Positions 9,514 to 44,619 of a stretch of 64,000 nt of DNA are shown here, in pieces. The position numbers and the translations under genes are program-made. The DNA is from an uncultured bacterium. Lineage in GTDB: Bacteria; Bacillota_I; Bacilli_A; RF39; UBA660. The stretch's first letter is position 1. Each line of letters opens with the position of its first letter. The notes below the pieces were generated by a model. The model was given only the letters and a program-made list of their open reading frames with translations, ran no database searches and was not told where the DNA came from. The stretch is from the NCBI GenBank assembly GCA_946560065.1, contig CAMNUE010000002.1:78950-142949 (forward strand). The letters are read 5' to 3'.

Positions 9514-9542
9514 AAAAAGGAAGTTTCAGTTCTTCCTTTTTT
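9514..9542 (-). terminator. bidirectional-looking intrinsic terminator
   Basis: aaaaaGGAAGtttcagttCTTCCtttttt. Confidence 0.55.
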
Positions 9543-9647
9543 AATTTATTGAAGTTTAAAGGTTATCAAATTGGCTTTGTAATATAAATTTTCTTATCGA
9601 GTTCTTTTACTTGTTCCAATATACTTTTTTTCATCTTTATTTTCCTT

Positions 9648-9863: not shown

Positions 9864-9894
9864 ACTTTTTCCCTTCATTTAACATCTAATTATT

Positions 9895-10146
9895 TCATTT
9901 TAAATATGCAACAAACGAAAGATTTCGATTTATTGCTTTTTTATTTCCAGACTTTTTATAGGGAGCAGGGTCTTCCTCTCCTCCATCTAAAATTGGATGA
10001 ATATACACTAATTTCCCACAAAATTGAAATTCTTTTTCAATTTCTTCAATACCATATTTTCGAATGCGATTATTGCCAATCAGGCAATTTCCATTCAAGT
10101 CTAAACATTGAATCATCCAAGGTTCAATACTTTTTAATTGTTCCAT
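9895..10146 (-). CDS. hypothetical small protein
   Basis: The ORF-track start 10164 is TTG; the first ATG is 10146. Weak RBS. Overlaps the 3' end of the upstream gene. Confidence 0.4.
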   Translation of the reverse strand: MEQLKSIEPWMIQCLDLNGNCLIGNNRIRKYGIEEIEKEFQFCGKLVYIHPILDGGEEDPAPYKKSGNKKAINRNLSFVAYLK

Positions 10147-10345
10147 TTTCTTTTTTTTCTCCAAAAGTATAAATAAGGTGGCTTTCTTCTAATGACCGAA
10201 GATCTATTTCAAGCTGTTTTTCATCATAGTTTAATTCTTTTGCAAGGACATGAACACGTCGGTTCATATCCTCTGCATAAAGAATTCTTTCTAAGGCTCC
10301 AATCAACCTTTTACAATTTCTAATCATTTCATCTTGATGGTTCAT
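10124..10345 (-). CDS. small protein directly downstream of parA (possible centromere-binding partner)
   Basis: 73 aa, starting 3 nt after the parA stop. The role is inferred from position only. Confidence 0.4.
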   Translation of the reverse strand: MNHQDEMIRNCKRLIGALERILYAEDMNRRVHVLAKELNYDEKQLEIDLRSLEESHLIYTFGEKKENGTIKKY

Positions 10346-10347
10346 TT

Positions 10348-11256
10348 TTAATATCCCAATTTTGTACGAACATCATCCAAAATTTCTTCTAAATAGTTTT
10401 GATAATCTTCTTTAACACCTGATGTCAGATTATCTTCTAATAAAATGCGATTATTAAGTGCTGCTAATTCTACAGGTTTTCCTTGAAAACGAATTTCCTG
10501 CTTGAATACCCTTTCTGGAAAAATATGACGCAACGTTTTAATCCACTCTTCATTGATTTTGTTGCGCTGTTTTAACGTAATTAACAACTTCACATCATAC
10601 GGTAGACGTTCTTCTTTGATCCATTCAATCAAGATTTCAATCGTTGCACCTAATCCGTTGATTGATCGATCAGAAATATTGAGTGGAACAATAATCGTAT
10701 CTCCCTCTTTACAGCAGGCACAGACTCCATTGTATGTCAACGAACTTTCAAACGGGCTGTTATCAATGATAATAACATCGTAATCATTATCAACATAGGA
10801 AAGAGCTGTTCTTAACTTTGCACTCGGATTTTTCCCCGATAATTTTAAGAAACCATCCGTCATCGACAATTCATCCGATGCTGGAATAATATCTAAATTG
10901 GAATATTTTGTCTTATAAATCGCATCCTTAACCAAAATAGGCTTTTTGAGAACATCGTTAATATCTGTCTGGTATTTTCGTTCTTTGGTGAATCCTCTCG
11001 ATGCCAGGGCTTTATAACTTTTCAAAATACCATTTTTGTCTTTACATTTGTCATACCATTCACGAATGTTGATAGCATCCTGTTCGCTGACTTCGTTATC
11101 ATCTTTCATCAAAGTCGATTGCCCATTTGCCTGCGGATCAAGCGGAATAAACAAAGTTCTATAACCACTCTGTGAAAGTCCATATGCCATATTGAGTGCT
11201 GTCTCTGTTTTTCCTACACCACCTTTGCGGTTTAAAATGTTATAAGTAATTGCCAT
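10348..11256 (-). CDS. parA: ParA/Soj-family partition ATPase
   Basis: ORF trimmed to ATG 11256 (AAGGAG 9 nt upstream). Deviant Walker A: MAITYNILNRKGGVGKTETALNMAYGL. Confidence 0.9.
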   Translation of the reverse strand: MAITYNILNRKGGVGKTETALNMAYGLSQSGYRTLFIPLDPQANGQSTLMKDDNEVSEQDAINIREWYDKCKDKNGILKSYKALASRGFTKERKYQTDINDVLKKPILVKDAIYKTKYSNLDIIPASDELSMTDGFLKLSGKNPSAKLRTALSYVDNDYDVIIIDNSPFESSLTYNGVCACCKEGDTIIVPLNISDRSINGLGATIEILIEWIKEERLPYDVKLLITLKQRNKINEEWIKTLRHIFPERVFKQEIRFQGKPVELAALNNRILLEDNLTSGVKEDYQNYLEEILDDVRTKLGY

Positions 11257-11281
11257 GTTGTTGTTCTCCTTGGTGTCTTTT

Positions 11282-11343
11282 ACCACCGACACAAGCAGTC
11301 AGCTTGTGTTTCGTCGCAATTTTCAGCGACTCATCAGGGCGAT
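11282..11343 (-). ncRNA. hammerhead ribozyme motif, type I topology (copy 1)
   Basis: Minus-strand RNA: AUCGCC CUGAUGA GUCGC-UGAAAAUU-GCGAC GAA ACACAAGC-UGACU-GCUUGUGU C GGUGGU. All invariant core positions and three stems are present. Confidence 0.8.
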
Positions 11344-11390
11344 TTTTATATTGTGTCTTTATTGTTTATTAAATTGTTTTGTTTAACAAC

Positions 11391-11615
11391 TCACTCTACT
11401 TCTTCTACATCATTTTTATTGATAGGATATTTTGTTCCCTCGTTGTCACAAGCAATATATTCCAATTCACCAAATATCAGCGCTTTCCAATCGTTTTTAT
11501 GAACTTCTTTTCCATCTAGTTCATTCATAAGTTCCGTTGTTTCATCATCCACTTTATCAAGTAGATTTTCTGTTTCTAACCTTTTTAACATTAACTCTTT
11601 TCTAAAAACTAACAT
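11391..11615 (-). CDS. hypothetical small acidic protein
   Basis: 74 aa, preceded by the shared GGAGAACAAC RBS module and promoter copy A. Confidence 0.6.
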   Translation of the reverse strand: MLVFRKELMLKRLETENLLDKVDDETTELMNELDGKEVHKNDWKALIFGELEYIACDNEGTKYPINKNDVEEVE

Positions 11616-11660
11616 TGTTGTTCTCCTCTGGTGTCATATTTCATCCTTATTTCTATACTT

Positions 11661-11689
11661 ATTATACTACACATTGTGTAGTATAGCAA
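11661..11689 (-). promoter_or_regulatory. promoter-operator copy A
   Basis: Minus strand TTGCTA-N17-TATAAT. The spacer plus the first 2 nt of the -10 form the palindrome TACTACACAATGTGTAGTA. Confidence 0.75.
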
Positions 11690-11693
11690 GTTT

Positions 11694-11882
11694 TTATTTA
11701 CCTTTTTTTTCACTGTTAATTAAAATTTCATCCAGGGCATCGATTTGTTTTTGAAGTTCAAATTTTAAATTATTAGCTATTTCTTTTTGAGAGTATTTTT
11801 CCCTTATCGAACCCAAGGTATTATATAAAATATATGATAAATCCTCGATAATAAAAAATAATGTTTTTTCTTTTTTATTCAT
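11694..11882 (-). CDS. hypothetical small protein
   Basis: 62 aa; overlaps the end of the upstream gene by 8 nt (coupled). Confidence 0.45.
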   Translation of the reverse strand: MNKKEKTLFFIIEDLSYILYNTLGSIREKYSQKEIANNLKFELQKQIDALDEILINSEKKGK

Positions 11883-12951
11883 GATAATCCCTTTCTATTT
11901 TTTTGTTTTCCTGATTATTCACAACTTGATTGATCGTGATCGGCAATTCTGAATCATCCAACATTTCTTGATGAATGATTGATGGAGCAATCCAATTCAA
12001 TTTTAGTTGTCGGTTTTGTTCTTTCTTGCTACCGATCCAGTAATGATGCCAATGTCCTTTGCGAACATGAGGTCTTTTTTGGCTTCCATTCTTTTGCAAG
12101 ACAATTATTTTTTGCCTATTATTTATCGGTTCTGGAATAGCAACATCATTAGCATGTACTTTTACTGTCTTTCGAATAACTTCTGATATTTTTCTTCCAC
12201 ATTCAAATTGACGTACTTCTTTGTATTGATCTTTAATTACTGCTCTTTTCTTATACACCTTTCCATCTTCATTTTTTTCACTAATTTCCGCATTCTGTGC
12301 ACAAATATAAAGCAGAAGCTGCATCACAGAAGTAACTAACCGAATATATTGCTCTGCTTGATTTTTATAATCCTGTTCAGAACAAGGATGCCTTTTTTGC
12401 GTAAAAGATGAATATTGATCGAAAAAATGTGAAAACACATTCTTTATATTTTGACCTTTTGCTACGTAAAGTGGCACTGGAATTAGTAAATCTTTGGTTA
12501 CTAGCATCAAACGAAATTGCTTTTTATTATTCTTTACTAGATAAAAAGCAAAAAAACCAAGTATATCCATAATATTTAAATTCTTAGTTTCAATAAAGAT
12601 ACATGAATAAGGAAGATTTTGTAAAACATCTACGGGAACATTAAAATCTTCCGTCGCTTGCTCATATAAAAGTTTTTCCAGTTCTCCGTAAAAACTATAA
12701 ATTTGTTTATTTTTTCTCCACATACTCAATGCTGTGAGCATTTCTAAATCAATCGCAACAGAACTCATATAGTCAATCTTATCCAACACTTTCCGTTCCT
12801 TGCTCATAACTATACGAGCTATTGACTTGATGGTTGGAGATTCCTCATTAGAATTCAGGCACTTTTCATATTCAATTTTTTCCCAGCATTTTGTATAATT
12901 CTTGGAATATAACTTTACAAGTTCCAAAGGAACGCAAGTTGATTTACTCAT
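11875..12951 (-). CDS. hypothetical protein
   Basis: 358 aa; overlaps the ssb stop by 8 nt. C-terminal RPHVRKGHWHHYWIGSKK motif, not assigned to any family. Confidence 0.6.
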   Translation of the reverse strand: MSKSTCVPLELVKLYSKNYTKCWEKIEYEKCLNSNEESPTIKSIARIVMSKERKVLDKIDYMSSVAIDLEMLTALSMWRKNKQIYSFYGELEKLLYEQATEDFNVPVDVLQNLPYSCIFIETKNLNIMDILGFFAFYLVKNNKKQFRLMLVTKDLLIPVPLYVAKGQNIKNVFSHFFDQYSSFTQKRHPCSEQDYKNQAEQYIRLVTSVMQLLLYICAQNAEISEKNEDGKVYKKRAVIKDQYKEVRQFECGRKISEVIRKTVKVHANDVAIPEPINNRQKIIVLQKNGSQKRPHVRKGHWHHYWIGSKKEQNRQLKLNWIAPSIIHQEMLDDSELPITINQVVNNQENKKIERDYHE

Positions 12952-13288
12952 CTTGCGCTCCTTGATTTTTAAAACTTAGAAATTCAATTTTCTCAACCAG
13001 AATAAACATTCTTTCGACTGAGTTTCCATTTTTATTTACATATTTATTTTTATCCAATTTGCCTTCAATCAACACACTAGCTCCTTTGCTTGTGTATTTA
13101 CACAACATTTCAGCGGTTTTATTCCATGCCGTGCAATCGACAAACAATGTTTCTTTTTCTTTGATAGCTAAACCAAAATTGACTACTTTTGATTCTCCAA
13201 AAGTTTTCAATTCCAAATTTGTTGAAATACGCCCAGTAACAATTACTTTATTCATAAAATATTCGGAGCGGACATACACGATTCTCAT
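12944..13288 (-). CDS. ssb: single-stranded DNA-binding protein (OB fold), no canonical acidic tip
   Basis: MNKVIVTGRISTNLELKTFGESKVVNFGLA...FVDCTAWNKTAEMLCKYTSKGASVLIEGKL. GGGAG RBS supports ATG 13288; the alternative start is 13255. Ends ...KNQGAQDE rather than D-D-D-(I/L)-P-F. Confidence 0.8.
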   Translation of the reverse strand: MRIVYVRSEYFMNKVIVTGRISTNLELKTFGESKVVNFGLAIKEKETLFVDCTAWNKTAEMLCKYTSKGASVLIEGKLDKNKYVNKNGNSVERMFILVEKIEFLSFKNQGAQDE

Positions 13289-13386
13289 GAGAGGAAACTC
13301 CCTTTTTCTCCCTGTTTGTTTTTACATCCTTTGTTCCTCATTTTAAAATTTGATTTTTCTAAAAAGATTGTTTGTCTACCTTCTTA

Positions 13387-13854
13387 TTAGACTTTCCAAT
13401 CAAGCGGCTGTCCACATCTTGGACAATGGCTTGGCTTTTCTTCGTAATAATTAAGACCACATTTAGGACAAAGCGGAACACTGCATTTTGGCGTATACCG
13501 CCAATTTGGCTCTTTTGGTTTGGAGTTATAAAATTCGAAGAAAAATGTTCCATCAAATGGCTTCAAGTTAATTACTCCAAAGCTCATACTTACCTTTACG
13601 TTATAATCATTCGCAATCCACTCATGCAGCGTTTTTAAATACTCTCTAAGCCCTTCCAGATCCATCAAATTCTTATAGTGATTACACAATTCACAGCTCG
13701 GAAACAAATTGTCAAAGTCATTCGTTCCACCCTGACGGATAGACTTTACATAATCAACTTTCATATCTTTCAAGTCGATTTTTTCTCCACAATAAGCGCA
13801 ATGCCCATCGAATTTATCGTACACATTTTTTTGCACACTTTTTGAAAAGCTCAT
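13387..13854 (-). CDS. HNH-family protein with C-terminal zinc ribbon
   Basis: ORF trimmed to ATG 13854 (13869 is GTG). CAYCGEKIDLKDMKVDYVKSIRQGGTNDFDNLFPSCELCNHYK. C-terminal CPKCG..CPRCG. Confidence 0.75.
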   Translation of the reverse strand: MSFSKSVQKNVYDKFDGHCAYCGEKIDLKDMKVDYVKSIRQGGTNDFDNLFPSCELCNHYKNLMDLEGLREYLKTLHEWIANDYNVKVSMSFGVINLKPFDGTFFFEFYNSKPKEPNWRYTPKCSVPLCPKCGLNYYEEKPSHCPRCGQPLDWKV

Positions 13855-13865
13855 CTTATTTTCCT

Positions 13866-14057
13866 TCACTTTCTATTTTTTTCAGAACGCCATAATAATT
13901 CGTAATAAACAATCACTAAATCAAACAGAATCATTCCAAAAATCAATTCAACCCAGCTCTTAGACCAATAACCGATAAATCCAGCTATTGTCAGCATAAG
14001 CGCATAAGGAAAGAATTTTACCGCCTGGGAAAAAAGTTTCTTCACTTTTTCCATCAC
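13866..14057 (-). CDS. small two-helix membrane protein
   Basis: 63 aa, hydrophobic (FFPYALMLTIAGFIGYW; IFGMILFDLVIVYY). Overlaps both neighbours by 4 nt. Confidence 0.5.
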   Translation of the reverse strand: MMEKVKKLFSQAVKFFPYALMLTIAGFIGYWSKSWVELIFGMILFDLVIVYYELLWRSEKNRK

Positions 14058-14947
14058 TTAGACCTTTCTGCTCGAATGAATGCCGTAGTAATATGATTCA
14101 ATTCTTCATCTTCCTTTAAAGCAATCAAAATGCGATCTAGATCGAAGATATTTGCATACGTGATTGTCAACTTTTTTTCTGAGATTGTTACACCTGCATC
14201 TGTAACATCAATGATGTGTTGTTTAACATCTTTCAGTATTTCCTTAATCGCATCTGTTGTACCAGAAGCAGTTTTTTGTTTTTTAGCAGATTCTTTTTTT
14301 TGTTCTTTTCCCGAAAATTCACCCGTCAAATATTTTTGAACCTGGCGACCAGAAATATTTGATCCATCACGATTCATGAAATTGGTTTTTGTTGCAATCC
14401 AATCTCTTTTAGAAATTCCTTTCTGTAGGTATCTTTTTTCTTCCAAAAGTTCAGCTTGGAATGGATTGTCTGTAGCTTTAATCTGCCGATCCAGTTCTTT
14501 ATCCTTTTGTTTGTAATGTTCATAAACTTTTTCGTAATTTTGAATAATAACACGTTTATCATCTTCAGATAAATACCGCTGATGATTATCTCCCATTATC
14601 ATCGCCATTTCCTCAGCTTCAGTTTCAGGCTTACGAACCACATACATCGGGAACATTCCATCATGGCGACCTTCCTTATATAACAACAAAAGTGCCCTGT
14701 AGCGTGTCTCACCACCAATCAGCGTATAATGTTTTCCATCATCATCTTCTTGATAATAGACACGCCCATTATTGACATTTTCTCGTTCAATTTCGTTTGC
14801 CAGCGAACGGACCTCTTCATCATAAATGTGAAAGAAATTCAGCTTATTAGGACGAATATCATTCACGTGAATAAACTCAAACGTTGGCTTATTGCTCGCC
14901 ATCTGTTCCCCAACTGTCCCAGTATAAATTTCCTCAAGCATGCTCAT
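14054..14947 (-). CDS. ParB/Srx-like nuclease-domain protein
   Basis: IHVNDIRPNKLNFFHIY...HYTLIGGETRYRALLLL (ParB-type GxxRxxA box). Confidence 0.75.
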   Translation of the reverse strand: MSMLEEIYTGTVGEQMASNKPTFEFIHVNDIRPNKLNFFHIYDEEVRSLANEIERENVNNGRVYYQEDDDGKHYTLIGGETRYRALLLLYKEGRHDGMFPMYVVRKPETEAEEMAMIMGDNHQRYLSEDDKRVIIQNYEKVYEHYKQKDKELDRQIKATDNPFQAELLEEKRYLQKGISKRDWIATKTNFMNRDGSNISGRQVQKYLTGEFSGKEQKKESAKKQKTASGTTDAIKEILKDVKQHIIDVTDAGVTISEKKLTITYANIFDLDRILIALKEDEELNHITTAFIRAERSK

Positions 14948-14998
14948 ATAGCAATCTCCTCTCTGTCAAATGACTTCTTTTTGTATACCACTTAAAAT

Positions 14999-15007
14999 AT
15001 TATAACA
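14999..15007 (-). promoter_or_regulatory. extended -10 promoter element for the ParB-like operon
   Basis: Minus strand TGTTATAAT about 45 nt before ATG 14947; no good -35. Confidence 0.4.
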
Positions 15008-15029
15008 TTGTTTTGTTGGATAAGAAAAA

Positions 15030-15042
15030 GGAACTGAGTTCC
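15030..15042. repeat. GGAACTNAGTTCC palindrome, copy 1
   Basis: aaaaaGGAACTGAGTTCCttttt; intergenic, 72 nt after the stop at 15114. Confidence 0.9.
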
Positions 15043-15113
15043 TTTTTCTATTCACTTATTCAATGCCATAAATTTCTTCCTAGTCAGGAATTTCAGACAT
15101 ATCGTACACATGT

Positions 15114-15452
15114 TTAATCATCCTGTTCTTCGCCCTTCTCAATTGCCAAAAGCTTTTTTCGGCAAGCGTCATATTGAATGTATTCTCCATATCCATTGCT
15201 GAGCATTTCGGCTGCTTTAACGGCTTCCAAAACCGTCATCCAATAATAGTCGTAATCCCATACTTCTGGTCTTCCTTGTTCGCAATCAATATCTGCTTTT
15301 TCAATTTTAGCCACAAATTCATCGCTATTAAGATTATATTTGCTGTAATCCGTATCTCCAATTTCTGGAAGTTCGTCTACAATGATTGCATTAATATAGT
15401 ATGCAGTATTTGTACTTTCATTGGTGTTTGTTTTAACTTCAATTGTTTTCAT
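15114..15452 (-). CDS. hypothetical acidic protein (cassette gene)
   Basis: ORF 15114..15524 trimmed to ATG 15452, which carries the shared GAGGAGAACAAC RBS. The longer ORF would read through promoter copy B. Confidence 0.65.
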   Translation of the reverse strand: MKTIEVKTNTNESTNTAYYINAIIVDELPEIGDTDYSKYNLNSDEFVAKIEKADIDCEQGRPEVWDYDYYWMTVLEAVKAAEMLSNGYGEYIQYDACRKKLLAIEKGEEQDD

Positions 15453-15495
15453 GGTGTTGTTCTCCTCTGGATGTCTCATCCTTATTTCTATATTT

Positions 15496-15524
15496 ATTAT
15501 ACTACACATTGTGTAGTATATCAA
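15496..15524 (-). promoter_or_regulatory. promoter-operator copy B
   Basis: TTGATA-N17-TATAAT with the perfect palindrome TACTACACAATGTGTAGTA. Confidence 0.8.
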
Positions 15525-15862
15525 TCTTTTTTGCTTTTTATTTTGTCATTTGTGATGTAAATGTAACCAATAAGCATTCTTGAAATATCTGGAATTTTCT
15601 TTCGATCCCACACCCAGGATTGTATGGTTCGTGGGTTGATTCCTAGATATTTCCCTATAATCTCAAACTTTGCTGTTTTATTTATGTTAAAAAATTCTTT
15701 TGGGGATGCTTTGGCAACATGCCAGATTTTAGACAGTAGATCTTCTGTCAAACCACTCTTCTGATTTTCCATTTCGGAAATCTCGTTTAAAAATTCTTCA
15801 ACACTATTTTTCTTTAAAGCTATCTTGTACAAAAATACATATAAATCATATTTAATGTTCAT
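15521..15862 (-). CDS. putative HTH DNA-binding protein
   Basis: Trimmed to ATG 15862 (AAAGGAG 8 nt upstream). IIGKYLGINPRTIQSWVWDRKKIP resembles an HTH. Confidence 0.5.
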   Translation of the reverse strand: MNIKYDLYVFLYKIALKKNSVEEFLNEISEMENQKSGLTEDLLSKIWHVAKASPKEFFNINKTAKFEIIGKYLGINPRTIQSWVWDRKKIPDISRMLIGYIYITNDKIKSKKD

Positions 15863-15876
15863 TCTGTATACTCCTT

Positions 15877-16623
15877 TCAATAATTCGGTTCAATTGAAAG
15901 ACTAGATTTCAAAATTTCCACCTTTTCATCCAATTCTAAAAAAGTTGCTTTTTTATAAAAAATCCTTTCTTCCAAAACCGTTCTTTCCTTTCCATACTGA
16001 TCGATATAATCGACTACACTATTCCCATTTTTGCTCATTCTTAATTCTCGTACACGATCGGGATAACACATTAAATATGCGCCAATACAATCAAATGGAA
16101 TTTTATATATTTTTTCAAACTTTTTTTCGTTGCTTAAAATAGTTATCTCTTTTTCTTCCCACTTTATTTCAAAATACTCATTTTCAAGTGCTGCCCATTG
16201 TTCATTAATCACAATGCCTTTCAGGCAAGTATTTTCAACTGCTTTTGCAAACAATGAAATATCTTTTGGATTAAACTTTTCTTGAATGACATGAAATGGT
16301 TTTGCATCGCCGTCGTGATAAACAAATACTTGTACTAATCCTGATTTATTTATAAAAATTCGAATTGCTCCAACCTCTGTTCCACCTTGATTTTCTTCAT
16401 ACCAAACTGTAAATGGTGGAATGCGATCGTTCACATTCCAATCAAATTCAAATCCATTTTGACGATCATCATAATAGGTGTAACCTAATTTGTACTTTTC
16501 CTCAGTGCTTAAATAAGAGCAGGCTCGATCGATCCATTCTTGAATCAAACTAACTTTAAATTCACGTGGCTTTTTCATTATATTTTCCTCCTGGTTTTTA
16601 CTTGTTTTCTTCCGAAAATTCAT
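15877..16623 (-). CDS. hypothetical protein (cassette gene)
   Basis: Trimmed to ATG 16623 (shared AAGGAGAACAAC RBS). The alternative ATG 16578 has AGGAGG. Confidence 0.6.
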   Translation of the reverse strand: MNFRKKTSKNQEENIMKKPREFKVSLIQEWIDRACSYLSTEEKYKLGYTYYDDRQNGFEFDWNVNDRIPPFTVWYEENQGGTEVGAIRIFINKSGLVQVFVYHDGDAKPFHVIQEKFNPKDISLFAKAVENTCLKGIVINEQWAALENEYFEIKWEEKEITILSNEKKFEKIYKIPFDCIGAYLMCYPDRVRELRMSKNGNSVVDYIDQYGKERTVLEERIFYKKATFLELDEKVEILKSSLSIEPNY

Positions 16624-16670
16624 AGTTGTTCTCCTTCTTAGATGCCTCATCCTTTATCTTTACGTCTTAA

Positions 16671-16699
16671 ATTATACTACACGTTGTGTAGTTATACAA
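16671..16699 (-). promoter_or_regulatory. promoter-operator copy C
   Basis: TTGTAT-N17-TATAAT; operator arms ACTACAC/GTGTAGT with centre AAC. Confidence 0.7.
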
Positions 16700-16720
16700 T
16701 ATTTTTTGTAGTTTCACCCT

Positions 16721-16744
16721 AAAAAAAGCCGCTCATCGAGCGAC
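16721..16744 (-). terminator. intrinsic terminator
   Basis: Minus strand GUCGCUC-GAU-GAGCGGC followed by U7. Confidence 0.7.
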
Positions 16745-16786
16745 CTTCCTTTTAATGATTAAAACCTCATTTTTCTATAAGATCAA

Positions 16787-17119
16787 TCAGTCTTCAATGA
16801 TTTCCGATTTCACAACTCTAAAACTTCCTTTGTTTGCCCAATAATTTGCGACGGCTTTCTCGCTATCAGCACCATCAGGCACATAATGCGGAATTATAAG
16901 GATAATCTCATTATCCTTCTGCCGTAGCTTAAGTACCGTATTCAACGGAAGCGTGATGCCGTTGATCGTGATCATGTATTCGTCGCCAATCGTTTCGTAA
17001 ATTTCGTATTCATCTGGAATTGTGATTTCCACGTTGTCGTATATGTCCGAGCAAATGAATGGAACCCTCAAAAATTTACCAAAATTTGAATAACCAATTT
17101 GACCTCTAACCTTTGTCAT
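16787..17119 (-). CDS. hypothetical protein (cassette gene)
   Basis: 110 aa with AGGAGGAAG RBS; flanked by promoter copy D and a terminator. Confidence 0.65.
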   Translation of the reverse strand: MTKVRGQIGYSNFGKFLRVPFICSDIYDNVEITIPDEYEIYETIGDEYMITINGITLPLNTVLKLRQKDNEIILIIPHYVPDGADSEKAVANYWANKGSFRVVKSEIIED

Positions 17120-17184
17120 TTTAATCTTCCTCCTTTTTACTTTGATTTCTTCTTAGATATTTTATCCTTTATCTTTACGCCTTT

Positions 17185-17213
17185 ACTATACTACACTACG
17201 TGTAGTATAGCAA
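17185..17213 (-). promoter_or_regulatory. promoter-operator copy D
   Basis: TTGCTA-N17-TATAGT; operator TACTACAC-GTA-GTGTAGTA. Confidence 0.7.
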
Positions 17214-17223
17214 CATTTCTTTT

Positions 17224-17248
17224 AAAAAAGTCGCTTATTTCAGCGACT
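17224..17248 (-). terminator. intrinsic terminator
   Basis: Minus strand AGUCGCU-GAAAUA-AGCGACU followed by U6. Confidence 0.75.
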
Positions 17249-17789
17249 AATATACCTCTTTCATTATTGTAAACAAACGACCAGCAAGTGGATTTTGTTC
17301 ATACGTTTCCATATACAATGTTGGTACTTTATATTTTTTCTTTATGTTCTGGATTTCATTGGCTGATTGACAAGCCTTTTCTACATCAAAACTTTGTAAG
17401 TTTTCAATACTAGATTCAATCGAATCAATGCGAGTTTGGATCAAACTTCTAAATTTATCAATATCGATTCGATTTTCATCATCTGTAATCGTAGTTGTAT
17501 ACCTGTTTCCGTTTGATCCTTGGAAGTTAATACCATACATGTGTCTATCTACAAATTTTAATGGATGCATTTCATAGATGCCATAAGGATTTTTCCAAAT
17601 ATTCCATGTCGTATTTTCTGTTAAGAAATTACAAAAACGTTTATTTAAAATTTTTTTATTCCATTTTTCAAGGTTAGGAACTTCCAATAAACTTGAAATT
17701 TCTTTTTTCAATGCGGTATATGCTTCTAATTCAGCTCGATAAGTAGATTTAATCGTTTCGATTTCCTTTTCAGTAAAAGTTGCTATCAT
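17247..17789 (-). CDS. hypothetical protein (cassette gene)
   Basis: Trimmed to ATG 17789 (GAGGAGAACAAC RBS). The longer ORF would read through the hammerhead. Confidence 0.65.
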   Translation of the reverse strand: MIATFTEKEIETIKSTYRAELEAYTALKKEISSLLEVPNLEKWNKKILNKRFCNFLTENTTWNIWKNPYGIYEMHPLKFVDRHMYGINFQGSNGNRYTTTITDDENRIDIDKFRSLIQTRIDSIESSIENLQSFDVEKACQSANEIQNIKKKYKVPTLYMETYEQNPLAGRLFTIMKEVY

Positions 17790-17810
17790 GTTGTTCTCCT
17801 CTGGTGTCCT

Positions 17811-17867
17811 ATCACCGACACCCTTGCGAGTGTTTCGTCGCAATTTTCAGCGACTCGTCAGGGTGAC
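17811..17867 (-). ncRNA. hammerhead ribozyme motif, type I topology (copy 2)
   Basis: GUCACC CUGACGA GUCGC-UGAAAAUU-GCGAC GAA ACACUC-GCAA-GGGUGU C GGUGAU. Stems I and III differ from copy 1 but still pair. Confidence 0.8.
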
Positions 17868-17884
17868 TTATCCATTTCAAATCT

Positions 17885-18193
17885 TTAATCAAAATTTATA
17901 GGGCAGATTCGATACAGAATCTGTACCTTCCCCTCAATTTCGTAAACACATCTATCATCAGTAAGTTTCAAGTAGCGTTCAATTGGTTCTACTATGTTCA
18001 CTTCTCCTTTACCTTGCTTCATTATCTGGATAAAGCAATCTGGAATGTTTTCCATCTCTTCATGAAGATCTCGAAGAATTTCCATGTGTGCTTCTTCCTT
18101 TGTGTCATGTAGGAGACTTCCTACAATCACAGTTTGGCATTTTGGCGATCCCTTAAACCATGGATATGTTGCAGTTACGATGTATTTTTTCAT
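17885..18193 (-). CDS. hypothetical protein (cassette gene)
   Basis: Trimmed to ATG 18193 (AAGGAGAACAAC RBS). Confidence 0.65.
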   Translation of the reverse strand: MKKYIVTATYPWFKGSPKCQTVIVGSLLHDTKEEAHMEILRDLHEEMENIPDCFIQIMKQGKGEVNIVEPIERYLKLTDDRCVYEIEGKVQILYRICPINFD

Positions 18194-18236
18194 AATGTTG
18201 TTCTCCTTTGGATGTCTCATCCTTATTTCTATATTT

Positions 18237-18265
18237 ATTATACTACACATTGTGTAGTATAATAA
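18237..18265 (-). promoter_or_regulatory. promoter-operator copy E
   Basis: TTATTA-N17-TATAAT with the perfect palindrome TACTACACAATGTGTAGTA. Confidence 0.7.
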
Positions 18266-18274
18266 ATCTTTTTA

Positions 18275-18301
18275 TAAAAAAAGTCGCTTATTTCAGCGAC
18301 T
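18275..18301 (-). terminator. intrinsic terminator overlapping the last codons of 18293..18604
   Basis: AGUCGCU-GAAAUA-AGCGACU followed by U7; the same hairpin as at 17229-17248. Confidence 0.7.
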
Positions 18302-18604
18302 CATCAGGCAATTCAATTCTCTAAACCATTTATCATAATTTGCACATGAACAATAACCAGCTGACGCCAACACAAAATCATCAACCATTGTAGATAGACG
18401 TTCATCTGAATCTTCACCTACTAACACTTGTATATTACCGTTCGACAAATATTCTATCTGACAATCCATAATTGGTTGAAACTCTTTATATCCTTCTTCT
18501 GTCAACTCCATATTTTCCCATACAAATGTTGCTGTCGCTTCAAAATCACCAAACAACTCACAATCAAAATCTTTTCTTGTGTCTAACAGTTCTTTCAATG
18601 TCAT
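18293..18604 (-). CDS. hypothetical protein, paralogous to the N-terminus of 28995..29792
   Basis: ELTEEGYKEFQPIMDC here versus VLTEKGYNYFKPIMDC in the 265-aa protein. Confidence 0.65.
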   Translation of the reverse strand: MTLKELLDTRKDFDCELFGDFEATATFVWENMELTEEGYKEFQPIMDCQIEYLSNGNIQVLVGEDSDERLSTMVDDFVLASAGYCSCANYDKWFRELNCLMSR

Positions 18605-18643
18605 TTTTTCTCCTCCAAGGTGTCTTACCTTTTATCTGCCTTT

Positions 18644-18672
18644 ATTATACTACACTTTGTGTAGTTTATCAA
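18644..18672 (-). promoter_or_regulatory. promoter-operator copy F
   Basis: TTGATA-N17-TATAAT; operator arms ACTACAC/GTGTAGT with centre AAA. Confidence 0.7.
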
Positions 18673-18685
18673 TTATTTTTCGTTT

Positions 18686-19432
18686 TTAACGTTCTATTTT
18701 TCTAAGAATTGCATGAACAAAATGCCGATCTGATCCATTTAGAAATGATGAAAGAGTACTGCCTGTATCAGCACATGTATATAACGTTACTACGTTGTCA
18801 TTTTCTGATACTTCTATATTTGTTGGATAGAAACTCTTTGCTGTTACTTCATCCATATAGAGCTTCAAACTCTCCCTATTTTGTATATCGGGCTGATTAG
18901 AAGTCGAAGTTGCTTTTTCACAATATGCAGAAAAAATATCCGCTTGATAAACCGCATTTGGAGTAATGACCTGAAAAAATGTATTTTCTAAAAAGTAGGT
19001 TTTATTCATATAATTTTTTAAAAATGTAAAATGCCCACTTCCCTTAAAAATGCTATGTCCATAAATAAAAGTATTTAAACTCGTGAAATTTGGGTTAGAA
19101 CGATAATCCATAAAGATTGATCCTTGTTCATCATATTTTTTATATAGATTTCTATTCAAATAAAAGTCATTATCAGAAGTTTGTAAAACTGGAAATGATA
19201 AATCAAGATTTGGAAAATAAAGAAAGGCAACCACATCATCATTGATTGCCCATATTTTCTCAAATGCATTTTGAATTGACGAGCGATCATCCACCTCGAT
19301 CGAATCGACTGTTTTTTCAATCTTATCGTCAATTCCGTTTCTTTCCAGATTTTTTAAAGCAAAAAGAATAAGTGGTATCAGTGACCCAATTAAAGTTAAA
19401 TACAGGATACACAGTATAATTTTTCTTCTCAT
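18686..19432 (-). CDS. srtB: class B sortase
   Basis: N-terminal TM; INDDVVAFLYFPNLDLSFPVLQTSDNDFYLNRNL...GSIFMDYRSN...NTFIYGHS...VVTLYTCAD...RHFVHAIL. Its start overlaps the relaxase stop by 4 nt. Confidence 0.8.
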   Translation of the reverse strand: MRRKIILCILYLTLIGSLIPLILFALKNLERNGIDDKIEKTVDSIEVDDRSSIQNAFEKIWAINDDVVAFLYFPNLDLSFPVLQTSDNDFYLNRNLYKKYDEQGSIFMDYRSNPNFTSLNTFIYGHSIFKGSGHFTFLKNYMNKTYFLENTFFQVITPNAVYQADIFSAYCEKATSTSNQPDIQNRESLKLYMDEVTAKSFYPTNIEVSENDNVVTLYTCADTGSTLSSFLNGSDRHFVHAILRKIER

Positions 19433-21141
19433 AGTTTTTCACTCTCCGCATTTAATGAAGAGTAATACTCCTTCACCTGTTCCCTACCTTCTTTTGAAAT
19501 CATTTCTAACTGCTCACCAGAAACACTATCAACCTTTTTATTGTTTTCATCGTAAAGATCATAAGTCTTGTCATCAATCAAATACATGACTGCACGTTTT
19601 TCAAAATTGCTCCAGGCAACTGACTTTTTATCCAAATAAACATACTGTTTTGTGTATGGAAGTTTGACACAATAAAAGTCATCAGTAGTTCTTGAATAAT
19701 CAATCATATTGTTGCTAAATGACATTCCCTTAATATAACCGTTCATTTCTAAAGACTTGCCTCTGATTCGTTCCAGCTCGGTCATCCTGCTTTTTAGATA
19801 AGTAATGTACGAATACTGCTTATTCGCTTCTCGTTTCTCTTTTGTGCAGGCGGAAAGAAATTCTCGAACTTCGCTTAGTTCAGGATTTCCTAGTTCTTCA
19901 CTCGCTTGTAAATGTTTTAAAACCGCTTCTGTCGGCTCAATCTTTTCAAAACTATGTAATTGGACTTGCTCTTCATAAATTTTAAAATCGTTATACGTTT
20001 CCAAATAAATTCTAGCAAGCGGTTCATTCTTCAAAAATTCCGTTGTTAAGGACTTTTGTTTTTCATACTCCGCTTGTCGTTCTTCCAATTCCATTAAAGT
20101 TTCTTTGATACGATTCTGTAAATCCTCATACGAATATATTTTTTCCTCATTTAAAAAATCAAGTGCCTTGATTAACTGGTTATAGCGTTTCTTTTCCTTA
20201 TATCGGCTGTTGTAGTATTTCGGATAATAATCACGTTTTGCTAAACCCTTGGTGGAATTTTTGATAGCAATCATAGAATTTGTAGCTGTCTCTTTGATTG
20301 ATGAAAAAGATCCATGAACATCTGGAATTTTTTCAAAATAAAATTGATAAGAATCTCCATTCCTCGTTTTTTCACGATAAAACTGTCTAAGCGCATCCTC
20401 ACTATATTCCTCTCCTAACTTGTGTAATCGTGTGAATCGCTCCTTTCCAAACGGCTTAACGCTAATATACTTTCCTCGTTTAATTTCATATCCTTCAAGA
20501 GCTAAATTTTCAAGTAATTCATCCAGGCTATTCGTTTCTTCTTTCACTTTTTCAATTTTATCAATAATGATCGACTTCCAGGAAACAGTGGATTTTTCAT
20601 AACTGGCATCCTTGGTTCCATCGTAGTTCTTTCCTTTAAAACGACCAATCGTTTTCAGTTCATCCATCACATGACATCCATATTCCTTTGCAACTCGATC
20701 ACTGGCTTCTCGAAGTCCATAGAGTCCTTCTTTTTTGTTTGCTAGGCGATCCTCTAACTTTCGCCCGCTTAAATTTGTTGCGTTGATTACGATATGGTTA
20801 TGCAAATGCCCTCGATCGACATGCGTACAAACGACACATTGATAATCGGAATAAATTTCTTTACATAACTTCAAGCCGATCTCATTCGCTATTTCAGGTG
20901 TAATGTCATCCCTAATATCGAACGACTGAACAACATGATAGGCGACACGTTCATCTTGCTCATTGTGATATTTTGCTTGAACCGCTTGCATCTCATGTTC
21001 TGCAAAACGGAGATTGCAGTTATACGCACTTTTTAAAAGACCGTGGTCGGTCTTTTCTTCATTTTCGATATAGTTTAAACATTGTGATAATCCACTTCCA
21101 TTTTCCCCAGCATGAATTACTATTCTTTTTGTGTATGGCAT
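19429..21141 (-). CDS. MobA/VirD2-type conjugative relaxase
   Basis: Histidine triad THVDRGHLHNHIVINA in the N-terminal domain. The last ~85 aa resemble the primase C-terminal repeats. Confidence 0.9.
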   Translation of the reverse strand: MPYTKRIVIHAGENGSGLSQCLNYIENEEKTDHGLLKSAYNCNLRFAEHEMQAVQAKYHNEQDERVAYHVVQSFDIRDDITPEIANEIGLKLCKEIYSDYQCVVCTHVDRGHLHNHIVINATNLSGRKLEDRLANKKEGLYGLREASDRVAKEYGCHVMDELKTIGRFKGKNYDGTKDASYEKSTVSWKSIIIDKIEKVKEETNSLDELLENLALEGYEIKRGKYISVKPFGKERFTRLHKLGEEYSEDALRQFYREKTRNGDSYQFYFEKIPDVHGSFSSIKETATNSMIAIKNSTKGLAKRDYYPKYYNSRYKEKKRYNQLIKALDFLNEEKIYSYEDLQNRIKETLMELEERQAEYEKQKSLTTEFLKNEPLARIYLETYNDFKIYEEQVQLHSFEKIEPTEAVLKHLQASEELGNPELSEVREFLSACTKEKREANKQYSYITYLKSRMTELERIRGKSLEMNGYIKGMSFSNNMIDYSRTTDDFYCVKLPYTKQYVYLDKKSVAWSNFEKRAVMYLIDDKTYDLYDENNKKVDSVSGEQLEMISKEGREQVKEYYSSLNAESEKL

Positions 21142-21155
21142 CTTACCCCTTCTTT

Positions 21156-21581
21156 CTAATCTTCAAATAATTTTTCCTGTTTTGAATAGACCTCTGGATT
21201 GTTACAAACTTTACGAACCGAGACCCAAAGCACATTATTTATCAAACGAATCAATTCAGCAACTAGATCGGTGATTTCTTGATTCTGCTTTTTCAATTGT
21301 TCTTTATCCAAATTCGATAAATCTGTCCGCATCATGATTTTTTCCTGTTCCAATCCGAATCGATCAATTCGCTCAATTAAACGATTCACACATTCATTCA
21401 CTTCTGATTTTCCGTGTAAATCCTCTACATAGATATTTTCGTAAATTCCAGCAGCTCTTAAATAGTCAGATAAATTTTGAAATCCATAGCGTTCCATTTT
21501 TTCTTTCAGCAATAATCGTTCTTCATCATTCAATAAAACATTCACTCTTTTTCGTTTGTCGTCTAATACTCTTCTTGCCAT
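21156..21581 (-). CDS. mobC: MobC-like relaxosome accessory protein
   Basis: RVNVLLNDEERLLLKEKMERYGFQNLSDYLRAAGI, immediately upstream of the relaxase. Confidence 0.7.
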   Translation of the reverse strand: MARRVLDDKRKRVNVLLNDEERLLLKEKMERYGFQNLSDYLRAAGIYENIYVEDLHGKSEVNECVNRLIERIDRFGLEQEKIMMRTDLSNLDKEQLKKQNQEITDLVAELIRLINNVLWVSVRKVCNNPEVYSKQEKLFED

Positions 21582-22165
21582 ATTCCTCTTTTTATCTCCT
21601 GCAACAATCTTTTGTATTCATATAAGTTTTCAATGTACTTTTCCTTATAGACATTTTGCTCGATCCACTTCACACCTTCTGCCGACACGACCGTTTTTTT
21701 TGCTACCAAAGAAACAGTTCCTGGATTTTTGTTTTTCAATCTTCTAATAGCTGAATTGATGCTATTTAAAGATTTTTGAAAATAGATTGCCAATTCCTTC
21801 ACGTTCATAGATCGATAAGCGACTGGATCTTTTTTTATCTTCAACTCCTGCTCTAATCGCTTAATATTTTTCTCAACAAAAATGACCTCAGCTGTCTTAT
21901 AAGGTACATCATAGTTCAAGTATACTTGCTCGATCCACTTCACACCTTCCAGATACATCCACAATTCTTGTTTACCCTCAATATTCGTTCGATAGAAGAG
22001 CCACCGATCACCTCGATGGCTCTTCTTACACTTTTCTCTAATCCACTTCATCTGACGATTCGACAGTTCAAGCTGCTTTTGAACATCCGAAAATCTAATC
22101 CTCTGAAATTCCAATTTTTTCACCCCTCTCCAACTATACAACGTTGACGGCTTTATATATAGCAA
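21563..22165 (-). CDS. putative DNA-binding protein with an internal duplication
   Basis: EGVKWIEQ occurs twice; the HTH-like stretch is MNVKELAIYFQKSLNSINSAIRRLK. The ORF-track start is TTG, so the true start is uncertain. Confidence 0.5.
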   Translation of the reverse strand: MLYIKPSTLYSWRGVKKLEFQRIRFSDVQKQLELSNRQMKWIREKCKKSHRGDRWLFYRTNIEGKQELWMYLEGVKWIEQVYLNYDVPYKTAEVIFVEKNIKRLEQELKIKKDPVAYRSMNVKELAIYFQKSLNSINSAIRRLKNKNPGTVSLVAKKTVVSAEGVKWIEQNVYKEKYIENLYEYKRLLQEIKRGIWQEEY

Positions 22166-22480
22166 GCATGGTGTGCATACACACCTTTTCGCTTGTTAGG
22201 GGAGACCCCTAAGACCCTTTATCGTAGAAATTCAAACCCATGAATTTCAAATTTTTAGGTTCATTTCTGAAAAGGAATAAACCTGGTATAAGTAATTTTT
22301 TTCTTCCTTGCATCTTGTTTTCCCCTTTCGTTTATCCTGTATCTGTGGGATGATTTTATCCTTTAAATTTTCAGTTATCAATATTTTTTGATGCTTTCCA
22401 CCGCTCTTTTGAATGTTGTAAGAATCTGTAGAACGGAATATTCGAATCAATTTTTTTATAGTTATCATCTTGATTGGAGA
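22166..22480 (-). other. candidate oriT / relaxase-operon promoter region
   Basis: Non-coding DNA upstream of the mobC operon with inverted repeats at 22170-22185, 22196-22212 and 22227-22248. No nic site identified. Confidence 0.4.
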
Positions 22481-22482
22481 TG

Positions 22483-22512
22483 AAAAAATCAGGATGACAT
22501 AGCATCCTGATT
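22483..22512 (-). terminator. intrinsic terminator after the methyltransferase gene
   Basis: Minus strand AAUCAGGAUG-CUAUGU-CAUCCUGAUU followed by a U-run. Confidence 0.8.
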
Positions 22513-22588
22513 TGGAAAATTCTCAATGTTTATAGATACCTAATGAAAAGAAAAATTAGAAAACAAATCATGAAAAATAAAATATTTA

Positions 22589-23683
22589 TTAAAATTCATA
22601 TTCATAATCCTCTTCTTCTATGGCATTTTCTGATTCAAAACTTTCGTATTTTACTTCCAATTTTCCATCTACTTTTTGTAAATTTTTCTCTACATTATCT
22701 TTCATTTTAGAAAACATTTCTTCATCTTTTTCGATAACGATTGAATCCCTTTTGGTGTTCATACAAGCAATCGCAAAGTTTCCAGAGCCACCGAACTGAT
22801 CGAGTAAAAGCTCATTGGGAAGTGAAATATATTCGATAATCGATTCCAATAATTCGACTGGTTTTTCTGCTTCCATGACTTTATCTTTACTATTTTTTGG
22901 CTGGAAATCGAATGCTTTAGGAAGCATTCCAGACGTTCCTTTCATGTAACAAACATCCAACCCATTCGCTAAAAGTATCTCTTTTACTTGATAAGAAGAT
23001 AGTCCTTTTACATCAATTCCATGTTCTATAGCCAGTTGAATATTTTTCTTTGCATCTAGTTTTAAACTCCTTGGCTCCCCTTTGGAAAAGATCATAATAT
23101 CTTCTGTATTGTGTGCTTTTCTTCCAGTATTCGATACAAAATTCCCTTTCACCCATGGCACTTTAGCAAAATATTTGAATCCATTTTTAACCGCCATCTG
23201 TTTTATTTCATACAAATACTGGTAGTTTACTTCGTTCTCTTCTGGTAAAAATTCGATGCAAAAAGCTCCATCTTTTAATACTCGCATCTTCTCTTTAAAG
23301 TCTTGTTCCGTGTATTTAAAAAGCTCGTACTGTGCAAACTTTCTATTCCCACCAGTTAGCGATTTAGAAAGATCGTAGGGATGATCGGTAACAATTCCAT
23401 CGATTGATTTATCCTTTATGAAAGATAAATCACGACCATTTCCGTTAATTAAAAGACAAGTTGTAACCTTTCCTTCTAATTGTTTTTCAACTTTGTAAAC
23501 GCCTCTAGCGACTCGTTTAAAGATGCCACGATCAATGCCTTCGTAGATTCTAGCACGGATTGATTCATTGTTGACAGGCATATTTTTGTGAACTTTGACA
23601 AGCTCTGTAGCCTCTTTCAAAGTGAAATTTTCATCATCCATAAAGTAGTCAAATAAACTAATTTGTATTGTATCAGCGTTCAT
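22589..23683 (-). CDS. orphan N6/N4 DNA methyltransferase (beta-class motif order)
   Basis: DPPY-type motif IDGIVTDHPYDL precedes the AdoMet motif LLDQFGGSGNF. No restriction gene is adjacent. Ends EEEDYEYEF. Confidence 0.8.
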   Translation of the reverse strand: MNADTIQISLFDYFMDDENFTLKEATELVKVHKNMPVNNESIRARIYEGIDRGIFKRVARGVYKVEKQLEGKVTTCLLINGNGRDLSFIKDKSIDGIVTDHPYDLSKSLTGGNRKFAQYELFKYTEQDFKEKMRVLKDGAFCIEFLPEENEVNYQYLYEIKQMAVKNGFKYFAKVPWVKGNFVSNTGRKAHNTEDIMIFSKGEPRSLKLDAKKNIQLAIEHGIDVKGLSSYQVKEILLANGLDVCYMKGTSGMLPKAFDFQPKNSKDKVMEAEKPVELLESIIEYISLPNELLLDQFGGSGNFAIACMNTKRDSIVIEKDEEMFSKMKDNVEKNLQKVDGKLEVKYESFESENAIEEEDYEYEF

Positions 23684-44605: not shown

Positions 44606-44619
44606 TTTTTCTTTTCTCT

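Follow-up and report, generated by a model that had tools for sequence, protein, structure and literature searches.

The question raised by this locus is whether a short sequence between two genes of a bacterial mobile element is a self-cleaving RNA, and what such an RNA could do there. The window, that is, the whole stretch of DNA analysed, comprises 64,000 nucleotides (nt) from an uncultured bacterium (GenBank assembly GCA_946560065.1, contig CAMNUE010000002.1, positions 78,950 to 142,949). A first-pass annotation, made from the letters alone, had placed two hammerhead ribozymes on its minus strand. The second of these, copy 2, is the main subject here; it lies between an upstream gene, gene A, and a downstream gene, gene B. 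Judged by all of its sequence and structural features, copy 2 is a real type I hammerhead. Sequence comparison further makes it likely that the ribozyme is functional and splits a two-gene transcript of a Gram-positive conjugative plasmid. The coordinates of the features are collected in Table 1.

The minus strand from 17867 to 17811 reads GUCACC-CUGACGA-GUCGC-UGAAAAUU-GCGAC-GAA-ACACUC-GCAA-GGGUGU-C-GGUGAU, in exact agreement with the letters and the stem layout first proposed. The invariant core is complete, with C3, U4, G5, A6, N7, G8 and A9 in one strand and G12, A13 and A14 in the other. Stem I has 6 base pairs (bp) and is open-ended, while stems II and III are closed by loops, which is the topology of type I. 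Stem II consists of 5 bp, starts with the G10.1-C11.1 pair and carries a loop of 8 nt. Stem III consists of 6 bp, is capped by GCAA and is closed by the pair A15.1-U16.1 (A17833-U17818), a position which is AU in 38 of 39 and in 120 of 123 relatives in two different alignments. The cleavage triplet is GUC at 17819-17817, followed by GGUGAU, and it fits the NUH rule, where H is any base except G. Cleavage by a hammerhead leaves a 2',3'-cyclic phosphate on the upstream RNA and a 5'-hydroxyl group (5'-OH) on the downstream RNA (PMC8782182).

It is important to compare copy 2 with the curated model of its family. The Rfam model RF00163 (Hammerhead_1) aligns to copy 2 over all 45 model positions with a score of 25.2 bits (E = 3.8e-4 in a search of 261 nt), and the core strands fall on the core columns of the model with the posterior probability marked by an asterisk. 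The gathering score of RF00163 is 34 bits, a curated cut-off that is a criterion for annotation and not a biochemical one, and a scan of the window at the Rfam gathering thresholds gave no match. Copy 2 has insertions of 12 and 10 nt in stems II and III, which are penalised by the 45-position model, and the threshold is not treated here as defining for membership of the hammerheads. When the whole window was scanned by E-value, the only matches beyond a weak one of copy 1 to RAGATH-1 were microRNA-like and due to chance; copy 1 also matches the type III models weakly.

A loose regular expression for hammerheads gave 78 matches in the window against 61 expected, which is no better than chance, and a covariance model was therefore used instead. 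This model, R1, was built from 39 relatives and assigns 76.6 bits (E 1.8e-24) to copy 2 and 72.9 bits to copy 1. The next full-length candidate in the 64 kb reaches 23 bits and is a terminator hairpin; there is no third full hammerhead. The 18-nt motif of stem-loop II occurs four times in the window against 0.01 expected. Chance resemblance was rejected on the grounds of these scores and this count. A megablast search with the 12 kb around the ribozymes gave no match in the phage and plasmid collections, and neither did a search of the same collections with a 76-nt ribozyme sequence, so that these collections offered no annotated relative.

Relatives were found by exact search for the 30-nt core with stem-loop II. 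This sequence is present in 27 stretches of bacterial genomes or metagenome-assembled genomes, mostly of gut Clostridia, and in 45 viral contigs, or 67 when the loop is left free. The type I arrangement is recovered in 64 of 76 instances, with the GUC triplet (once GUA) correctly placed. For 39 distinct type I relatives, RNAalifold was applied to a MAFFT alignment blind to structure, and it returned exactly stems I, II and III. In this alignment 93.6% of the cells are paired, compared with 72.5% in column shuffles (none of 500 shuffles reaches the observed value) and 22-49% in slid registers, and there are 126 double-change cells where 37 are expected. R1 was also run on all fetched loci, with 141 matches, 126 of them distinct. 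The distinct sequences are paired in 92.9% of cells against 64.8% in shuffles and show changes on both sides in 15 of 17 pairs, including four of the five in stem II; their alignment is fitted to R1 and leans towards it, while that of the 39 relatives is not. The proposal that the structure is under selection is thus strongly upheld by database homologues, where the stems covary and the core is kept.

The subfamily to which both window copies belong has a nearly fixed 8-nt loop II (UGRRAAUU) and A-rich flanks of stem I, with A at position -1 in at least 90%. The fixed loop and the A-rich flank are compatible with a tertiary contact between loop II and stem I or its extension, for which they show no covariation; hammerheads require such a contact to cleave fast at physiological Mg2+. 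The position of the motif among genes is also regular. It is always on the coding strand, between open reading frames (ORFs) of the same orientation, and 47 of 54 distinct instances come after an ORF of at least 50 codons. In the 54 distinct loci the next start codon mostly lies 11-75 nt past the cut, and the upstream stop codon is mostly at most 3 nt from the first base of stem I, or within the core CUGA, so a terminating ribosome would sit on stem I in most relatives. The window copies are exceptional in this respect, with the upstream stops 17 and 47 nt before the ribozyme.

The comparison of the two window copies has to be read with some care. The core and stem-loop II are the same in both save for N7, where one copy has C and the other has U, as the first-pass annotation had stated. 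It had also taken the pairing preserved between the two copies as the signature of a selected structure. Selection is borne out by the database relatives. However, the three changes in stem I are one-sided and pass through G.U wobble (G.U to A-U, U.G to U-A and A-U to G.U), and pairs altered on both sides are confined to the distal part of stem III, although pairing is kept throughout. The evidence of the two copies is therefore thinner than was implied, since the changes in stem I are not double-compensatory, and it had been overstated.

Orthologues in related plasmids also bear on the stems. An Erysipelotrichales isolate genome (L096) is syntenic with window positions 8962-15880 and encodes a ParA that is 94% identical. 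Directly before this parA lies the orthologous ribozyme, with stem II as GUCUU/AAGAC in place of GUCGC/GCGAC, which amounts to two double compensatory changes. Its loop II is GGAAGAUU, two stem I wobbles have become Watson-Crick pairs, and the gene before the ribozyme is unrelated to that of the window. In L103 and L104, which contain gene A, the ribozyme and gene B, the sole difference in the ribozyme is a C-G pair in stem III for U.G in the window. Non-compensatory changes in the stems of homologues had been named as an observation that would speak against a selected structure; the orthologues differ by changes that preserve or compensate pairing and by no others.

Several further observations were made on this family. 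Nine hammerheads are of type III, that is, circularly permuted, with the core and stem-loop II identical to type I (L013, L015, L017, L019 with three copies, L036, L050 and L058); one ribozyme cassette therefore exists in both topologies. Viral contigs contain arrays of hammerheads, with about ten in 8 kb of L084 (5817-13472), six in L063 and five in L087, and arrays are also found in L059 and L078. The density of these arrays is roughly one hammerhead per junction, at almost every gene pair. The GC-rich relatives L078, L084, L087 and L092 have a different loop II (e.g. UGUGGUAG, CGUGGCAA) and, 2 nt past the 3' strand of stem I, a stretch complementary to it (e.g. ACCAC, GCCA). This complementarity, seen by eye, suggests a Watson-Crick pseudoknot between loop II and the 3' tail, while the AU-rich UGRRAAUU loop of the window subfamily has no obvious Watson-Crick partner.

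A contig from Logan SRR35270336 (L105, 366-432) has gene A and the 5' half of copy 2, and then switches partner inside the 32-nt shared core. Its 3' half and flank are those of the phage hammerhead of L031, L033 and L066, and its stem I is unpaired. Either assembly at k=31 created a chimera through the conserved core, or the ribozyme was the site of a genuine recombination. The formation of circular RNA, or splicing, between copies 1 and 2 was also considered and rejected: the copies are 6.5 kb apart, with terminator-like hairpins and promoter palindromes in between.

Copy 2 is part of a compact unit in which a palindromic promoter, gene A, 17 nt, the hammerhead, a hairpin with a ribosome-binding site (RBS), gene B and a terminator follow one another. 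Gene A had no match in Pfam or PHROGs, and a search of a protein database for its homologues returned only the protein itself; gene B had no match in Pfam or PHROGs either. On the minus strand no terminator-like site is found from 18281 to 17248 and a terminator-like hairpin follows directly on gene B, and the two genes therefore form one transcription unit. The first-pass annotation had stated that there is no terminator upstream. This is true for the gap between gene A and the ribozyme, but one gene further up there are a terminator-like hairpin and a promoter-like palindrome. The layout around copy 1 is alike, with a promoter (11689-11661), a gene for 74 amino acids (11615..11391), the hammerhead, a hairpin with RBS, and parA (11256..10348). 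Copy 1 runs into GGUGGUAAAAGACACC (11287-11272), which is followed by an RBS as at copy 2.

The palindrome before gene A is one of six of 12+3+12 nt (ATTATACTACAC-N3-GTGTAGTATAAT), located at 18664-18650, 18257-18243, 17205-17191, 16691-16677, 15516-15502 and 11681-11667. They include the -10 box of sigma-70-like promoters and mostly come 17 nt after a -35 box, TTGATA or TTGCTA. They are probably operators of one plasmid repressor acting over the whole establishment region. A variant, ACTACAT-ATT-ATGTAGT, is present in L096. The two terminator-like hairpins of Table 1, each followed by U6-7, are near copies of stem-loop II of the ribozyme. The hairpin of the preceding unit has a run of 17 nt in common with the 5' half of the hammerhead, and the ORF before it terminates within the hairpin (...NCLMSR*); this hairpin looks like a recombinant or a hammerhead remnant turned terminator. 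Neither of the two hairpins was found in the genome collection searched.

Table 1. Positions of the ribozyme copies and of neighbouring features in the 64,000-nt window
Feature	Position	Strand	Basis or remark
Hammerhead ribozyme copy 2, type I	17811..17867	-	sequence, RF00163 alignment, own covariance model, covariation
Copy 2, stem I 5' strand	17867-17862	-	
Copy 2, core CUGACGA	17861-17855	-	
Copy 2, stem-loop II	17854-17837	-	
Copy 2, core GAA	17836-17834	-	
Copy 2, stem-loop III, GCAA loop	17833-17818	-	
Copy 2, C17	17817	-	
Copy 2, stem I 3' strand	17816-17811	-	
Predicted self-cleavage site	17816..17817	-	3' of C17 (17817), 5' of G1.1 (17816); GUC and A15.1-U16.1
Mini-hairpin GGUGAUAGGACACC	17803..17816	-	would start at the 5' nucleotide of the cleaved downstream RNA; shares the stem I 3' strand
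RBS leader of gene B AGAGGAGAACAAC	17790..17802	-	ATG at 17789
Gene A, upstream gene, 102 amino acids, orphan	17885..18193	-	ORF and translation; first gene of the unit
Gene B, downstream gene, 180 amino acids, no family	17247..17789	-	ORF; second gene of the unit, ATG at 17789
Promoter-like palindrome ATTATACTACAC-AAT-GTGTAGTATAAT with -10 box, before gene A	18233..18267	-	one of six sites
Intrinsic terminator-like hairpin AGUCGC-UGAAAUAA-GCGACU with U-run, directly after gene B	17224..17248	-	closes the two-gene unit
Terminator-like hairpin CUGAUGA-GUCGC-UGAAAUAA-GCGAC-U7 of the preceding unit	18277..18302	-	
Hammerhead ribozyme copy 1, same subfamily as copy 2	11282..11343	-	sequence; own covariance model

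The leader between copy 2 and gene B is of particular interest for the function of the ribozyme. A GGUG...CACC hairpin and the RBS GAGGAGAACAAC had been described there from the sequence, and both are real according to the sequence itself, the comparison of leaders and folding. For the predicted 3' product of cleavage the minimum free energy (MFE) structure is ((((......)))), with -5.0 kcal/mol and the RBS unpaired. The hairpin takes its 5' arm from the 3' strand of stem I, and its formation therefore has to wait until stem I has opened on release of the product. The leader AGAGGAGAACAAC is also found after four of the six promoter palindromes and after copy 1. More generally, the leaders behind ribozymes (GGUGAUAGGACACCAGAGGAGAACAAC-AUG, GGUGGUAAAAGACACCAAGGAGAACAAC...) are homologous to those behind promoters (...GACACCAGAGGAGAACAAC, GGAUGAGACAUCCAAAGGAGAACAAC). 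In 52 distinct relatives folding of the 26 nt at the start of the 3' product yields -3.2 kcal/mol against -1.7 in shuffles (none of 200 reaches the observed value), and at least four of the first five nt are paired in 46% against 21%. An earlier test, based on the longest helix with G.U allowed and a start at 0-2, gave weak enrichment (4.05 vs 3.72). The enrichment is counted as moderate evidence because the test was changed to the one based on MFE after the data had been seen.

Related plasmids hold gene B in different surroundings. In L097-L101 it is 91% identical and stands directly behind a palindromic promoter, without a ribozyme, with the same terminator after it. L097 is the sole contig that reaches past this terminator, and there a promoter, an unrelated gene for 84 amino acids, a hammerhead and a homologue of the window gene 15880..15521 follow. 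In L102 a 64%-identical gene B comes 15 nt after another ORF, again without a ribozyme. Four plasmid junctions were seen, two of them in the window and one each in L096 and L097; in each the ribozyme follows a variable gene that is the first of its promoter unit, and no homology was detectable among the upstream genes of these four ribozymes. The ribozyme and its leader are thus at different junctions in related plasmids, and they are not obligatory for the downstream gene.

The homology of the leaders after ribozymes and promoters, together with the position of the motif between ORFs throughout the family, points to an intercistronic processing site, allowing us to propose the following mechanism. 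Transcription would run from the palindrome promoter near 18240, or by read-through from the unit above, to the terminator after gene B. The ribozyme would fold as a three-stem junction and cut itself between C17817 and G17816. The mRNA of gene A would then end in the compact body of stems II and III with a 2',3'-cyclic phosphate. The mRNA of gene B would begin with a 5'-OH, and its first 14 nt would refold from the released 3' strand of stem I to the GGUG/CACC hairpin, directly before the exposed RBS. The net effect would be that gene B receives its own mRNA with a standardised leader, nearly identical to that of promoter-proximal genes, and the variable upstream gene would no longer influence its stability or translation. 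Likewise, the mRNA of parA would start with GGUG-loop-CACC before an unpaired Shine-Dalgarno sequence. Cleavage in vivo and its effects on stability and translation are inferred in this scheme.

Several points weigh against this proposal. For copy 2 a competing fold, in which CACCCU pairs with AGGGUG, is calculated at -21.2 kcal/mol compared with -20.8 for the hammerhead by the nearest-neighbour method, while for copy 1 in isolation the MFE structure is the hammerhead fold. Once flanking sequence is included, stem I loses to the GGUG/CACC hairpin and to other pairings. The hammerhead fold is then estimated to make up a fraction of 0.002 at equilibrium in copy 2, 0.0002 in copy 1, 0.06 in L103 and 0.2 in L096; these calculations leave out the tertiary contacts between loop II and stem I that stabilise natural hammerheads. 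The enrichment of the hairpin is moderate, and the sequences compared are partly kin to one another. The promoter of gene A has the weakest -35 box of the six, which makes the true 5' end of the unit uncertain. Gene B does not need the ribozyme, as it is found directly after a promoter in L097-L101 and directly after an ORF in L102. In Bacillus a 5'-OH end can target RNA for decay by RNase J1, as with glmS, and by analogy cleavage could destabilise the downstream mRNA and not protect it. Hairpins at the 5' end are protective for RNA in Bacillus.

The folding results raise the question of whether cleavage is regulated. The hairpin and stem I compete for the same six nucleotides, and cutting might take place only once the hairpin has been opened, for example by a ribosome initiating at the adjacent RBS, which would couple the cut to downstream translation. 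Such a switch appears unlikely. It agrees with equilibrium folding in context, where the hairpin is preferred to stem I for L103 and the two window copies, with the enrichment of the hairpin across the family, and with the position of CACC at -17 to -14 from the AUG, which is within reach of an initiating 30S subunit given the size of its footprint. However, the hairpin has just 4 bp (-5 to -6 kcal/mol, with z about -1.5 when taken alone) and is missing in about half of the family members, and the MFE structure of L096 is the hammerhead fold even with the hairpin sequence included. The preference for the hairpin also comes from nearest-neighbour models that take no account of hammerhead tertiary contacts. 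In addition, leaders with the hairpin and RBS follow promoters that have no ribozyme, and a role of the hairpin is therefore independent of the ribozyme.

The near-isoenergetic misfold of copy 2 and its U.G pair, where the L103 orthologue has C-G, could instead mean that copy 2 cleaves poorly and is an inactive or decaying passenger, the hammerhead and leader being a mobile junction module, copied from one gene junction to another, whose conservation reflects recent common descent and not selection at this place. This we hold to be more improbable still. Gene B is found without the ribozyme in related plasmids, and two terminators resemble remnants or recombinants of the 5' half of the ribozyme, so decay or rearrangement does occur. 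On the other hand, the core positions and the three stems of copy 2 are all intact, and the sole difference between copy 2 and its orthologue keeps the pairing. The window copies differ at three positions of stem I and throughout distal stem III with pairing kept, and the orthologue of copy 1 has two double compensatory changes in stem II beside a parA that is 94% identical. A role at the level of DNA has hardly any probability in our judgement. The inverted repeats would then act in the entering single-stranded plasmid DNA, as a priming site or promoter hairpin, or as a recombination site for the shuffling of cassettes, and not as an RNA catalyst. The ribozymes do lie in the establishment region near a relaxase, an SSB and an anti-CRISPR-like gene, an identical core of 30-32 nt is common with phage elements and L105 switches partner exactly inside it, and a terminator bears the 5' half of the ribozyme. 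But this leaves unexplained why the unpaired CUGANGA, GAA and GUC are invariant while the stems vary freely, why the motif is always on the coding strand between co-oriented ORFs, and why the permuted type III versions retain the core; L105 can be a k=31 assembly chimera.

The proposal of a self-cleaving processing site can be extended in a tentative way. The hammerhead, the hairpin that recycles stem I and the RBS may together be a portable gene-junction module of establishment regions. It would allow variable, fast-evolving first genes, candidates for anti-defence cargo, to be plugged in before conserved genes, parA among them, whose expression would stay undisturbed. The hairpin would make cleavage irreversible and shield the 5'-OH, and the core would serve as a recombination point from which the terminators 18302-18277 and 17248-17224 arose. 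We consider this extension possible, with the balance of probability against it. If true, it would give bacterial hammerheads a concrete, testable role.

It is useful to compare the locus with known systems. Hundreds of bacterial hammerheads have been described near prophage genes, several of them flanking single genes or short blocks (Perreault et al. 2011, PMC3088659). Prophage hammerheads were shown to cut polycistronic constructs of about 2 kb in vitro, among them a triple arrangement that surrounds ardA in Agrobacterium tumefaciens, and Clostridium scindens has tandem hammerheads (PMC3088659). The present locus resembles these in its canonical core, in its place between co-oriented genes of a mobile element and in the several copies per element. 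It also shares with them the small variable flanking genes, including anti-restriction or establishment genes, and the proposed splitting of long transcripts into single-gene mRNAs. The same intercistronic arrangement is seen here between gene A and gene B, at the second copy before parA, and in the viral relatives, some of which have 5-10 copies. It differs in belonging to a Gram-positive conjugative plasmid with Rep3, a coupling protein, a relaxase and LPXTG pilins, and in having a defined two-gene unit from palindromic promoter to terminator, a leader hairpin that recycles stem I, and terminators resembling stem-loop II.

With RF00163 copy 2 shares the topology, the core, G10.1-C11.1, the GUC...GAC start of stem II, the GUC triplet and alignment over the full length; it differs by a score below the gathering score, longer stems II and III, and the fixed 8-nt loop II and A-rich 5' flank of its subfamily. 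RAGATH-1 (RF03152) is similar in being of type I, in the UAUAAAA-like single strand that precedes a stem I of 5 bp, and in its long, GC-rich stem III. Its model, however, includes an additional hairpin at the 5' side and reduces stem II to a minimum, in contrast to the 5-bp stem II and 8-nt loop of the window copies. Membership of RAGATH-1 was rejected, as copy 1 scores 29 bits against a cut-off of 56.3 and copy 2 has no RF03152 match at E <= 10.

RiboJ, a hammerhead with a 23-nt hairpin that normalises the 5' untranslated region (5'-UTR) (PMC7536230), and other synthetic insulators have the same order of hammerhead, hairpin and RBS and the same expected independence of the 5'-UTR from the upstream sequence. 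RiboJ was engineered from a type III satellite-RNA hammerhead with a separate hairpin, whereas here the 5' arm of the hairpin belongs to stem I, so that the hairpin has to form in place of stem I or once the cut has been made. By analogy, copy 2 would be a natural counterpart of this insulator. The glmS ribozyme of Bacillota is likewise a self-cleaving RNA in an mRNA leader, producing a 5'-OH fragment whose fate is set by host RNases. In contrast, it is dependent on a metabolite, is unrelated in structure and destabilises its mRNA, and nothing at the present locus hints at a ligand.

The role of the hundreds of hammerheads in bacteria and phages has been described as largely elusive, and it has been suggested that they process RNA into transcripts that differ in stability (PMC6765202). 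The overall interpretation of the first-pass annotation is supported, but its significance is lower than was assumed, as intercistronic hammerheads in mobile elements have been known since 2011 (PMC3088659) and copy 2 is a clean further example. The locus leaves the general picture unchanged; it is no surprise, but it gives a good handle on the open question of the role of bacterial hammerheads. In an incomplete search of the literature we did not find the context of a plasmid establishment region, the unit of promoter, variable gene, ribozyme and leader, the hairpin that recycles stem I, or the hammerhead-like terminators; nor did that search return a paper tying hammerheads to plasmid leading regions or one with the stem II sequence.

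The locus is an unusually clean test bed, with a two-gene unit that has a recognisable promoter and terminator and a second copy before parA, whose function is measurable. The downstream gene occurs in natural relatives both with the ribozyme and without it; the leader hairpin recycles stem I, and ordinary promoters of the plasmid are followed by leaders of this type too. These properties make the idea of a natural insulator, or of differential stability, directly testable. Since the subfamily falls below the Rfam hammerhead threshold, such ribozymes are under-annotated in plasmids and phages of gut Bacillota.

The window as a whole has 33% G+C and nearly all of its genes on the minus strand. 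It encodes a Rep3 initiator, ParA, a MobA/VirD2 relaxase with a NikA-like partner, a type IV coupling protein, a VirB4-like ATPase, a primase, a cell-wall hydrolase, a sortase-like protein and LPXTG pilins. This set of replication, relaxase, coupling and pilin genes identifies it as a Gram-positive conjugative plasmid or a similar element. By sequence it is far from any plasmid in PLSDB, where the relaxase finds at most 32% identity and no nucleotide matches are found. Both ribozymes are downstream of the relaxase, among genes for SSB, an HNH protein, a weak ParB_N-like protein, an AcrVA2-like homologue (a label taken from the Pfam match of the L097 homologue) and many small acidic orphans. 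An orphan N6/N4 DNA methylase gene is located just upstream of the relaxase operon. From this gene content, which also takes in the NikA-like protein, the relaxase and the sortase-like protein, positions 11875-23683 look like an establishment, or leading, region, and the small acidic orphan genes could be anti-defence candidates. Elsewhere in the window, at 44614-44665, there is a near-perfect inverted repeat of about 23 bp in the 119-nt gap after the primase gene. It scores in Rfam as a microRNA-like hairpin on both strands, and it could serve as a terminator in both directions or as some other hairpin site of the DNA.

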